DNA of 64,000 nucleotides, from the IMG/VR virus record IMGVR_UViG_3300025646_000015, positions 1 through 64,000 of that record; one strand, 5' to 3'. The stretch's first letter is position 1. The number at the start of each line of letters is the position of its first letter. A model generated the notes under the pieces. The model saw nothing but the letters and a program-made list of their open reading frames with translations, was not told the origin of the DNA and ran no database searches. A program made the position numbers and the translations under genes. Shown here piece after piece: positions 4,507 through 52,946 of this stretch. Origin of the DNA: a virus.

Positions 4507-4754
4507 TATCTAAGTTTATATAATTCTTTATCTATTTCTATTATAGTCTTATTTATCTCAGAAATCAACTTCTTTGATCCTTTTATTTTATTTGCTTCGT
4601 CCAATGCTTTCTTTTGATCTATTCTTTTATCTAATAATTCATTTATTTCACCCAATCGAGTTTTATACTCGACGGGTTCGGGGTAATCATTTTTGCTTCT
4701 TCTTTTTTTCTTGGGCATTCCCCACGCTGAAAAATTTTCTTCTCCGAAATTCAT
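4506..4754 (-). CDS. hypothetical protein
   Basis: ORF track; GGAGG SD. Confidence 0.65.
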   Translation of the reverse strand: MNFGEENFSAWGMPKKKRRSKNDYPEPVEYKTRLGEINELLDKRIDQKKALDEANKIKGSKKLISEINKTIIEIDKELYKLR

Positions 4755-6571: not shown

Positions 6572-6620
6572 TACTTATTTATTTAGTTTATTTTTGTTTT
6601 CTATTTATTTAATTTAATAG

Positions 6621-6694
6621 TGGGTTCTGAGAGGCTTGAACTCTCGACCTGCCGATTATGAGTCGGATGCTCTAACCAACTGAGCTAAGAACCC
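6621..6694 (-). tRNA. tRNA with CAT anticodon (Ile2-like, or Met)
   Basis: Full cloverleaf GGGTTCT..CT-CAT-AA..TTCAAGC..AGAACCC-A; G1-C72 paired, so not initiator; CCA not encoded. Confidence 0.93.
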
Positions 6695-24002: not shown

Positions 24003-24302
24003 CTATTTTACAAATTTTTTAATTTCATTTTTTTTTAGACTCAATTCTCTTTCTATATTCTCTGCTACATTTTGACCGACAGATATTTCGTGATCTTTAG
24101 ACAAAGAGTTTAATAATTGAGCTAAATTTTTTCCTGTTTTAATCCTATAATCTTCTCCTGCAAGAAATAAATTTTCAGTAGTCATCAAAGTCAAATTATC
24201 TATCTTAATTAAGATATGATTGACTGCATCTGAACTACCTCTGACTCCTATTTTTATCATATCAATACCAACAACTATAATAAACGCGCCACTTCTTGTC
24301 AA
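24003..24302 (-). CDS. hypothetical protein (start probably ~24260)
   Basis: ORF track. Confidence 0.55.
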   Translation of the reverse strand: MTRSGAFIIVVGIDMIKIGVRGSSDAVNHILIKIDNLTLMTTENLFLAGEDYRIKTGKNLAQLLNSLSKDHEISVGQNVAENIERELSLKKNEIKKFVK

Positions 24303-24693
24303 GCATTTTTCTTGCTTCTTCTACGAACATTAAGTCATTCTTCTTGTACCAATAGTCGTTTTCGGGATATGGTTCGTCATTTTCATCGTTCCAAAAATAA
24401 GAATCACTACCCCAAAAGAAACCACTAGCTTCGGGGAACTCAAAATTATTGATAGCATATTCAAGTTCATCTATATCTTGAGAAGTTAATGGCAACTCAA
24501 CACAATTAAATGCACTACCGAAACCTAATTCATCTTCAGTTAAGTCGGGCATATTTGGACAACCCTTGTTTTCCCAAAGTTGTTGCATCCAACCTTGCAA
24601 GCGATTGTGTTTGCGCCATTCCATTATTTGAACATCGTCCTCGCTATTCCTCTTGCGAGGTGGACGAGCGTAACCATATTGATCTAATCCCAT
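24262..24693 (-). CDS. conserved phage protein (MGLDxY..WRKHN..FFxG family)
   Basis: Motifs; GGAG SD. Confidence 0.8.
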   Translation of the reverse strand: MGLDQYGYARPPRKRNSEDDVQIMEWRKHNRLQGWMQQLWENKGCPNMPDLTEDELGFGSAFNCVELPLTSQDIDELEYAINNFEFPEASGFFWGSDSYFWNDENDEPYPENDYWYKKNDLMFVEEARKMLDKKWRVYYSCWY

Positions 24694-26453: not shown

Positions 26454-26497
26454 GTAAACAACTTAAACTAAAAATTCTGATTTGTCAAATAAAAATG

Positions 26498-26570
26498 AGC
26501 CACCTGTCAGAATCGAACTGACGACCTACGCATTACAAGTGCGTTGCTCTACCTACTAAGCTAAGGTGGC
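26498..26570 (-). tRNA. tRNA-Thr(TGT)
   Basis: GCCACCT..ACGCA-CTTGTAA-TGCGT..GTCAG-TTCGATT-CTGAC-AGGTGGC. Confidence 0.95.
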
Positions 26571-26678: not shown

Positions 26679-27281
26679 TTATTTTTTATTTTCTTTGATT
26701 TGTTGCAATTCTCTTTCTTGAGTATATTTAAATAATGATTCTAAATCATTTTTGGGTAATTGAGTATTTACAAGTTTATTTTGCCAACGCGATTTCATTT
26801 TTCTATTTTGTTTAGTAAATAATATATATTTAGCTTCTGAATGTAAACCATAACCAAAAGTTAAACAAAGTTTAATAATTTTTTTATCAAGTTTAATACT
26901 ATCTTTAAATCTATTATTAGATAAAATGCATTTTCTATCTAGCCCCGCATCTTCGGCATATTTTCTAGCTTTTAACCATTTATTGGTATTCCATTTCTTT
27001 TTAGTGTTATAATTTTTTTGGGTTTTAGTTTTTGTTTGCTTGTCTTGATATATTTTTGGCGGTTCAATTTTATGATGAAATAAACCATGACAATCAGAAC
27101 ACAAAGTAATTAGGTCGTCAAGAGGTTCATTGCCAACATTAAAATAAGTTTTGTGATGAACATGAAGGTTAGATTTAGAGTTACAAAGAGAACAACGAGA
27201 ATTATCTCTATCCCTAACTAATTTAGTTTTTTCACGCCATTCTGTAGATTTTAAATATTTTTTATATTCAGTTTTATCCAT
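26679..27281 (-). CDS. HNH endonuclease
   Basis: YLKSTEWR..CSLC..LHVHH..LITLCSDCH. Confidence 0.9.
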   Translation of the reverse strand: MDKTEYKKYLKSTEWREKTKLVRDRDNSRCSLCNSKSNLHVHHKTYFNVGNEPLDDLITLCSDCHGLFHHKIEPPKIYQDKQTKTKTQKNYNTKKKWNTNKWLKARKYAEDAGLDRKCILSNNRFKDSIKLDKKIIKLCLTFGYGLHSEAKYILFTKQNRKMKSRWQNKLVNTQLPKNDLESLFKYTQERELQQIKENKK

Positions 27282-27819: not shown

Positions 27820-28071
27820 TCAATCATTATTAAATAATTTATCCCTAACTAATTTGAAAGCATATTCATCTTGGAATCTACAATTTTCAATCATTTCATC
27901 TAATTGTTCTTTTAACATTCTATGGCAATCTTTAATTCCTTGGTCGTACCCCGCGTCACGATCATCCATTATTGTTTTACTCATTTTACGAGACAAACTT
28001 TCTTGAGCGTCAGAGTAACCTTTTTCGTATCCTCTAGTAAAATATATATCTTGTTTTATTTGTTCGTTCAT
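27820..28071 (-). CDS. hypothetical protein
   Basis: GYEKG/GYDQG repeats. Confidence 0.65.
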   Translation of the reverse strand: MNEQIKQDIYFTRGYEKGYSDAQESLSRKMSKTIMDDRDAGYDQGIKDCHRMLKEQLDEMIENCRFQDEYAFKLVRDKLFNND

Positions 28072-28084
28072 TGTATTTAAATAT

Positions 28085-28216
28085 TTGCACGGAGAGTATC
28101 CGTGACTAACTCCGATATAGCAGTAATCGAATTACTTACTAGTCCTTTTCCGCTGATCAGGCATGGTAGATTCGTAGGAATAGAATCAGAAGGAGGTGAA
28201 CCTATATATTTCATTC
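28085..28216 (-). ncRNA. candidate structured RNA/leader with an anti-SD-like segment
   Basis: TTGACA-17-CATAAT promoter; hairpins GAUUC/GAAUC, AGUAAU/AUUACU, CACGGA/UCCGUG; GGUUCACCUCCUU. Confidence 0.45.
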
Positions 28217-28374
28217 GTCAACATTATGCCATATTTTTCCTTCTGTGTCAAGCTCAGAACTCCACAACATCAACTTTTTATAAACAGGATATAAAACTAT
28301 TCCCATCCATTCAAAATACAATAAATTACTAATTGTATCACCAATATAAAAAAGTATTTTGCTTAAAAGTAATT

Positions 28375-52535: not shown

Positions 52536-52946
52536 TGGTGGAGGTGGCGGGAGTTGAACCCGCGTCCTGATCGCCTGCAACGATCACATCTACAAGTTTA
52601 GTTGATTTTTTTTATAGTTAAGATATCAACATCCAACTAGCCATTTCAATTATTTACAGTTTATGATATGGATAAATTTTTATCTGTTTTGGCAGATTAG
52701 TGACCCCGCAATCTTAATATCTGCGTCAAAAGTTGCGAGGGGGCAGCTTTCAAGCTACCATCTCAAGCTCTTCAGCTTGCTCGAATTGTACGAGATTGTC
52801 GTACTCTTCACGAGCAGCTTCAAGAAGCTCTTCTATGCTATAATAACCTTCGGCATGTATAGCTTGTGTGTCTTGATATCGGAGCCTGACACATCTCCGA
52901 CTTGCAGTGAAAGAATTCGAACGTCAGTCAAATCCAGAACACCCCC
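52536..52946 (-). ncRNA. ssrA: tmRNA
   Basis: 5' GGGGGUG / 3' CACCUCC-ACCA with G3-U; T-arm GCGGG-UUCAACU-CCCGC; internal tag ORF 52750..52854. Confidence 0.95.

Follow-up and report, generated by a model that had tools for sequence, protein, structure and literature searches.

The locus and its promoter

The window – the whole stretch of DNA analysed, 64,000 nt – covers the first 64 kb of IMG/VR virus record IMGVR_UViG_3300025646_000015, which is 101 kb long and judged 74% complete. Its GC content is ~31%, and the minus strand carries nearly all genes. On this strand a 64-aa gene, a 55-aa ORF and an 83-aa gene follow one another, and between the latter two lies a segment that very probably encodes a non-coding RNA, with a 45-aa ORF running across it (Table 1). 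The 55-aa ORF, the 45-aa ORF and the neighbouring small genes belong to no Pfam or PHROG family.

Table 1. Features of the window discussed in the text. Handles beginning with L denote related loci.
Feature	Position	Strand	Remarks
Upstream 64-aa gene	28569-28375	minus	
55-aa ORF	28378-28211	minus	conserved, hydrophobic; homologues in L004, L005, L002, L006
Sigma-70-type promoter TTGACA-17-(TG)CATAAT	28251-28223	minus	11/12 match, TG upstream
-35 element TTGACA	28251-28246	minus	17-nt spacer
-10 element CATAAT	28228-28223	minus	17-nt spacer
45-aa ORF over the entire RNA	28214-28077	minus	not a conserved gene
Non-coding RNA core	28203-28076	minus	128 nt, medium size class; covariance model R1
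Anti-SD-like segment GGUUCACCUCCUU (DNA GGTTCACCTCCTT)	28202-28190	minus	12/13 to 16S tail
Motif loop UUCACCUCCU	28200-28191	minus	
P1 5′ strand AGGU	28203-28200	minus	
P1 3′ strand ACCA	28167-28164	minus	closes the motif-bearing loop
Variable hairpin GAUUC-loop-GAAUC	28187-28169	minus	pair 66-82: UA 15, CG 8; pair 64-84: GC 11, AU 5
P2 small hairpin UG.CU-GAUC-AGC.G	28163-28151	minus	pair 99-107: UA 19, CG 13, other 17
A-rich linker	28150-28142	minus	between P2 and P3
P3 hairpin UAG..AGUAAU-UCG-AUUACU.CUA	28141-28118	minus	99% of cells paired; pair 129-190: AU 45, GC 5
Conserved single-stranded linker UAUCGGAGUUAGU	28117-28105	minus	GGAG at 28113-28110
P4 3′ hairpin CACGGA-UACUC-UCCGUG	28104-28088	minus	terminator-like; pair 214-226: UA 28, CG 27, never broken
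RNA tail CAAAUAUUUAAA	28087-28076	minus	
Downstream 83-aa gene	27820-28071	minus	no SD; ATG 4 nt past the RNA tail
85-aa homologue of the usual downstream gene	24003-24260	minus	same promoter cassette, no RNA
Promoter cassette TTGACA..GGCGCGTTTATTATAGT + TGTTGGTATTGAT	24260-24310	minus	also in L153, L164, L163 and others
HNH homing-endonuclease gene	26679-27281	minus	
tRNA-Thr(UGU)	26497-26570	minus	
tRNA-Met(CAU)	6620-6694	minus	
tmRNA, one-piece	52536-52946	minus	

The initial annotation had placed a TTGACA-17-CATAAT promoter ahead of the RNA, and this assignment held on closer inspection. We add that the promoter does not lie in spacer DNA: it sits within the 3′ end of the conserved 55-aa ORF, in its last 40 nt. 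This ORF begins with GTG in the window and ATG in relatives, its start overlapping the stop of the upstream gene (GTGA in the window, ATGA in relatives); at the other end, its TGA shares bases with the ATG at 28214. Differences from two homologues are biased towards third codon positions (5/1/8 and 7/3/11 at positions one to three). Transcription is predicted to start at ~28216-28214 on the minus strand. The same promoter element is kept both in relatives that have the RNA (L179, L196) and in one that does not (L004). The start codon of the downstream gene, at 28071, indeed lacks an SD, as had been noted.

Among 91 full-length copies of the RNA (see below), 33 lie behind TTGACA-17-TAnnnT, while another arrangement, seen in 20 of the 91, has a tRNA-Cys gene whose 3′ end lies 4-18 nt ahead of the RNA. 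Judged by sequence alone, the 5′ end of the RNA is thus accounted for by its own promoter or by adjacency to tRNA-Cys. The window has no tRNA-Cys, the upstream neighbour of the RNA in relatives; it encodes a one-piece tmRNA and tRNAs for Thr and Met (Table 1).

Homologues, structure and mobility of the RNA

Our first homologue search covered 18 related viral contigs gathered via neighbouring proteins. Most of these have the 55-aa gene and its internal promoter, but with another gene directly behind, and the segment 28206-28076 was present in just one contig (L019). Homologues were collected in three steps, using a 20-nt pattern from the conserved 3′ half, the covariance model R1, and a 23-nt pattern describing the 3′ hairpin P4 with both variable positions left free. 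A looser pattern, GGTTCACCTC-N-TGATCA, was rejected: its matches were mostly chance, and the model retained three loci, one already known (L027) and two new (L041 and L045).

These searches identified the RNA in 10 of 21 related virus records, as a single copy at differing map positions, and in 20 viral and 64 marine metagenome contigs. Covariance model R1 matched 87 viral and marine metagenome loci at E < 1e-6, the window copy scoring 146 bits (E ~1e-30), and the 91 full-length copies reduce to 51 distinct sequences. No Rfam 15 family overlapped the RNA in the window or in six homologous loci, either at the gathering threshold or at E up to 10, and ARAGORN placed no tRNA or tmRNA at its position. 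A DNA search of 50,697 phage records returned no match to the RNA, and the 3′ pattern had no match in 185,579 prokaryote species genomes. The family is previously undescribed, absent from Rfam and new among phage small RNAs. As far as these searches show, it is confined to large (~140-205 kb), AT-rich marine phages that are uncultured and form a clade; it is widespread in coastal and open-ocean metagenomes.

The initial annotation had proposed three or four hairpins in this segment. Comparison of the 51 distinct homologues supports four helices, although the single-sequence fold of the window copy is no better than that of shuffles (z = +0.78). In the model alignment, 91% of cells at paired positions are able to pair, versus 29-55% when the partners are slid, and the covariation score of 0.091 exceeds that of shuffled alignments (0.059 +/- 0.003) and was reached by none of 500. 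Compensatory changes were found in P1, P2, P3, P4 and the stems of the inserts. RNA position p, used below, corresponds to window coordinate 28204 - p.

The homologues fall into three size classes of ~105, ~127 and ~173 nt that share one architecture. The GG/CC pairs of P1 are kept in 49 of 50 alignment rows, and its first pair is variable (GC 15, AU 12, GU 4, unpaired 19), being A.A in the window. The hairpin that follows the motif loop in the window is absent from the short class, is replaced by different 5-bp hairpins at the same position in other medium-class variants, and gives way in the long class to a branched domain of ~65 nt. The two stems of this domain each show several pair types (pair 35-65: A-U 5, G-C 17; pair 47-57: U-A 14, C-G 6, U-G 2). 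P2 has an extra nucleotide in one subgroup, where it forms a perfect 5-bp stem with a GACG loop. The single-stranded linker before P4 is invariant apart from a C/U alternation at one position and, in L191, one U-to-C change.

In several homologues (L181, L230, L232, L236, L187) a U-run (CAAUUUUUUUU and similar) comes after P4. We take the hairpin to be a candidate intrinsic terminator, but a weak one in the window, whose tail lacks a U-run and where a terminator scan gave no hit.

Two additional pairings were considered and rejected. A pseudoknot between CUCY of the 5′ motif and GGAG of the linker would comprise 4 bp only and shows no covariation. In the long-class insert (L160, L170 and L180 types, RNA positions ~17-43) we observed GUGA twice (in AAUGUGAG and in UUCGUGA), in each case complementary to the UCAC in the motif loop. 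These could mask UCAC in the long class, but the pairing shows no compensation and two natural variants break it. We also observed a 66-nt deletion form (L187:365-521) that, besides the terminator and its U-run, has kept only the 5′ motif and the AUAUCGGAGUUAGU GGAG linker, and that may mark the minimal functional core.

We next consider whether the segment might act through a peptide, as the initial annotation had allowed. The 45-aa ORF begins at an ATG 8 nt past the -10 element, and the L019 type has its ATG at exactly TTGACA-N29-ATG spacing; in that type the frame, 61 aa from the ATG at 4574, remains open over a 48-nt insertion. Such a leaderless-type start could give a functional product, at least in the subgroup of the window. 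However, the frame is open from the ATG in only 7 of the 51 distinct variants, namely those of the window and L019 subgroups. In the other 44, either a stop, commonly AAC-TAA, interrupts it 5-68 nt from the beginning of the RNA or the start is missing, the tRNA-adjacent copies lacking the ATG. The size-class insertions generally do not respect the reading frame, and the ORF matches no protein family. Between the window and L019, the 3′ hairpin differs by two substitutions, which compensate each other exactly so that pairing is kept, although each is non-synonymous in the 45-aa frame. Stems thus covary where codons are not kept, the comparison the initial annotation had proposed, and its preference for an RNA over a 45-aa peptide was upheld. 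A functional small protein strikes us as highly improbable, and the open frames of the window and L019 subgroups are probably due to chance, though the RNA might have a dual function in these subgroups. We conclude that the flagged stretch is very probably a conserved, structured, mobile, non-coding RNA gene.

The mobility of this gene is apparent from its surroundings. It behaves as a unit of ~144 nt that is present or absent at two loci, fitting exactly into the junction of a promoter or stop codon with the ATG that follows. At the locus described here, the 55-aa gene of L004 abuts its neighbour through an ATGA overlap, whereas the window and L179 have the RNA at this point with ATGA duplicated on both sides. 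At the other locus, a conserved promoter cassette drives the 85-aa gene in the window and the RNA together with that gene in relatives, where the RNA is placed precisely between the GAT of the cassette and the ATG. Across phages the commonest order is promoter cassette or tRNA-Cys, then the RNA, then a gene of an 86-aa family that follows ~60% of copies; the remaining contexts bring to at least six the number of different genes that the RNA precedes.

These arrangements bear on a reading in which the RNA has no trans function and serves as a structured 5′ leader or insulator for whichever gene follows, adding a leaky terminator, processing site or stabilising structure between promoter and start codon. 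Its exact insertion between promoter or leader and ATG at two loci would suit such a role, as would the preponderance of the 86-aa family downstream. The RNA also always ends 2-15 nt before the start codon where its tail is AAAUAUUUAAA, and in the window, with no U-run after the 3′ hairpin, transcription could continue into the next gene, which would allow a cis role. But a nearly invariant RNA stands ahead of at least six unrelated genes, and the usual downstream gene works without it in the phage of the window. L181, L230, L232 and L236 have a full U-run with the start codon distant or absent, and a mere insulator has no need of 8-10 conserved loop nucleotides and a 15-nt conserved linker. 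The presence/absence pattern at two loci likewise argues against a leader dedicated to one gene, a cis leader having been one of the alternatives named in the initial annotation. We consider a purely cis-acting cassette unlikely, though it is the foremost of the alternatives.

The anti-SD-like motif

The feature that had first drawn attention to the segment is a 13-mer near the 5′ end of the RNA resembling the 3′ tail of 16S rRNA. Both its position and its 12/13 match proved correct, GGTTCACCTCCTT differing from GGATCACCTCCTT by one mismatch. A 13-mer with at most one mismatch is expected 0.07 times per window and was present in 7 of 100 shuffles; the 8-mer CACCTCCT taken alone is not significant, with 0.6 expected in the window. 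On the plus strand, as noted previously, the reverse complement AGGAGGTGA has no usable start at SD spacing, the only candidate being a GTG inside the motif.

Within the RNA structure, GG(U) of the motif forms the 5′ strand of P1 and UUCACCUCCUU forms the loop. The motif might have been buried in a stem, which would have refuted the initial proposal; instead, none of the covariation-supported stems includes it, and folding predictions leave most of it unpaired. Its mean unpaired probability is 0.76 in the short class, 0.64 in the medium class (0.63 for the window-type RNA) and 0.55 in the long class. In the short class it forms the 12-nt apical loop of a GGG/CCC hairpin, with unpaired probabilities of up to 0.95. 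The motif is thus displayed by a loop on a short closing helix, whereas no free 3′ end presents it.

The motif is conserved, but not in the form that first suggested an anti-SD. GGUU(C/A)ACCUC is present in 91 of 91 full-length copies – found via a pattern at the other end of the RNA, in P4 – with C6 replaced by A in two distinct sequences. The base after CCUC (position 12) is C in 5 and U in 45 of 50 motif-bearing alignment rows, so that the CCUCC core is nearly confined to the subgroup of the window. Its five holders among the 51 distinct sequences (L179, L196, L212, L215 and L174) are that subgroup plus L174. The family consensus, GGUUCACCUCUU, matches the 16S tail at 11 of 13 positions. 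Given this consensus and the predominance of CCUCU, the anti-SD core as such is, judging from the alignment, not under selection.

What is conserved could still be a protein-binding surface. The loop or the GGA-containing linker might titrate a host or phage protein, candidates being a factor or nuclease that recognises the 16S tail, S1, or a defence toxin. The 12/13 identity of the window copy to the 16S tail would favour such a decoy. So would the strong conservation of loop and linker in an RNA with no detectable RNA target in the phage genomes, and the 66-nt L187 variant retains just the motif, the GGAG linker and the terminator. On the other hand, the CCUCC core is not conserved, the motif is internal and presents no 3′ end, and the RNA carries a single site in a single copy, in which known sponge RNAs differ. 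No candidate partner gene is linked to the RNA, and the phage encodes no bS21. A decoy or sponge for a protein is therefore, in our assessment, rather unlikely, and ranks below the cis-acting cassette.

Translation context, host and candidate targets

The initial annotation had assumed that messages of this phage are SD-poor or leaderless, and we found this to be so. GGAG-type motifs precede only 3-8 of 134 phage gene starts. TTGACN-N29-ATG occurs at 26 minus-strand sites (e.g., 1878, 12077, 26488 and 29901) versus 2.6 expected, which points to numerous leaderless or near-leaderless genes that each have a separate promoter.

Phage start signals usually mirror those of the host, and it is more likely that the SD-poor phage reflects an SD-poor host. 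On the identity of this host, a protein search with the DnaE-type polymerase gave best matches near 30% identity and no cultured relative, and neither a phage bS21 nor a T9SS sorting domain, both sought as host clues, is present. The large subunit of the phage class Ia RNR (L238 6676-9099, genome 90676-93099; L240) has 79% identity to a gene on a 7.7-kb contig binned with an uncultured MAG of the Flavobacteriaceae; other cellular matches, led by SAR86 and other Gammaproteobacteria, reach ~48%. The Flavobacteriaceae-binned contig is a weak hint of host and probably a mis-binned phage fragment. Flavobacteriaceae make little use of SDs, and sigma-70-type promoters are untypical of their phylum; the hint is consistent with the SD-poor translation observed here, though the sigma-70-type promoters are not.

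This context bears on the proposal with which the analysis began, that an abundant mimic of the 16S tail pairs with host SDs in general while SD-less or leaderless phage mRNAs escape. The near absence of SDs from phage genes and the excess of leaderless-type starts speak for such a decoy. The loop is moreover conserved and exposed, and by sequence reasoning CCUCU could pair with GGAGG through one G.U wobble. Yet an SD-poor host is the simpler explanation of the gene starts, the sole hint of host being the Flavobacteriaceae-binned contig, and in an SD-poor host a general SD blocker would be left little to block. At two positions the family consensus is not that of a true anti-SD. The RNA is missing from half of the related genomes, including five judged 100% complete, although those genomes belong to the same clade and share the same gene-start style. 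Finally, we know of no case in which one small RNA titrates all SD-led mRNAs stoichiometrically. We regard a global anti-SD decoy as very unlikely. Only marginally less remote is the broader claim that the RNA imitates the 16S 3′ tail, occupying SDs or a factor that holds or reads the tail, and so tilts translation towards SD-less or leaderless phage messages; if true, this would be an RNA-only translation-takeover device on a mobile cassette.

We instead tentatively favour, as a reading somewhat short of probable, a trans-acting phage small RNA whose loop makes contact with purine-rich, RBS-like sequences, most likely by pairing, or with a protein. Our readings accordingly run, in descending order, from trans action via the loop to a cis cassette, a protein decoy, a global anti-SD decoy and a peptide. 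Under trans action, the RNA of the window would be transcribed from the TTGACA-17-CATAAT promoter at the end of the 55-aa gene, and in other phages might be released from a tRNA-Cys co-transcript. The predicted transcript of ~130-140 nt would end at the conserved 3′ hairpin, acting as a terminator that is leaky in the window. Its short helix NGGU/ACCN would close a loop displaying the conserved UUCACCUCYU, followed by the optional variable hairpin or branched domain. Two small hairpins separated by the A-rich linker would come next, and then single-stranded AUAUYGGAGUUAGU ahead of the terminator hairpin. The exposed CU-rich loop would be the contact surface in trans, most likely pairing with purine-rich RBS-like sites of the GAGGUGAA type in host transcripts and thereby changing their translation or stability.

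Loop-to-RBS pairing is suggested by the architecture of the RNA – a pyrimidine loop, an A-rich linker and a terminator hairpin – which is like that of RBS-pairing small RNAs. In transcripts of the phage's own genome, the best duplexes with the loop were no better than those with shuffled loops, and across 16 related genomes AGAGGTGAA was no commoner than its reversed control. With no site above chance in the phage genomes, any RNA target is likely in the host.

Base-pairing small RNAs of this general kind include S. aureus RNAIII and RsaE and B. subtilis RoxS, whose C/U-rich loops target SD regions. The RNA described here resembles them in its length of 100-200 nt, in the pyrimidine-rich, seed-like stretch of its loop and in its terminator-like 3′ hairpin, but differs in being phage-borne and cassette-mobile. 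To the 16S rRNA 3′ tail itself the likeness is one of sequence: UCACCUC is identical, and the window copy matches GGAUCACCUCCUU at 12 of 13 positions. The differences are that the motif sits in a 5′-proximal loop, that most family members have CCUCU and not CCUCC, and that outside the motif the RNA matches nothing in Rfam, not even the rRNA models.

Few small RNAs of virulent phages are understood in function, and to our knowledge none has been described for these large marine phages. The proposed action most resembles that of c4 of phages P1 and P7, a small structured antisense RNA whose exposed loops pair around an RBS and block translation (PMC12197685). c4 is released from a longer transcript, as the tRNA-adjacent copies of our RNA might be, and loop-to-RBS pairing is what we propose here. 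The two share no sequence or structural similarity, however, and come from unrelated hosts and phage types; the target of c4, the ant mRNA, is known and encoded nearby, whereas no complementary site stands out in the present phage genomes. RNAC and RNAD of phage T4 are small RNAs from the phage tRNA gene region whose role is still unknown (PMC3014915). The 20 copies directly after tRNA-Cys invite comparison with them, but the analogy is positional only. The cassette described here moves from locus to locus, and in most copies the RNA has a promoter to itself.

The compact, well-supported structure and its three natural size variants, including a minimal 105-nt form, make this RNA tractable for experiments. 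An anti-SD-like loop in phages that almost never use SDs poses a testable question about how they handle host translation. The precise insertion between promoter and start codon, in turn, has a bearing on the movement of regulatory modules within large phage genomes. PeSL cassettes of T4-type phages, which consist of a promoter and a simple stem-loop located between promoter and next gene, are apparently shuffled by recombination. Like them, the RNA is part of a short regulatory module in variable regions of large phage genomes with homing endonuclease genes nearby; unlike them, it is a multi-helix RNA of 105-175 nt with conserved loops and covarying stems. HNH homing-endonuclease genes lie <1 kb from the RNA locus in two genomic contexts, in the window (Table 1) and at 741-1337 on the plus strand of L029, and are possibly linked to the mobility of the cassette.
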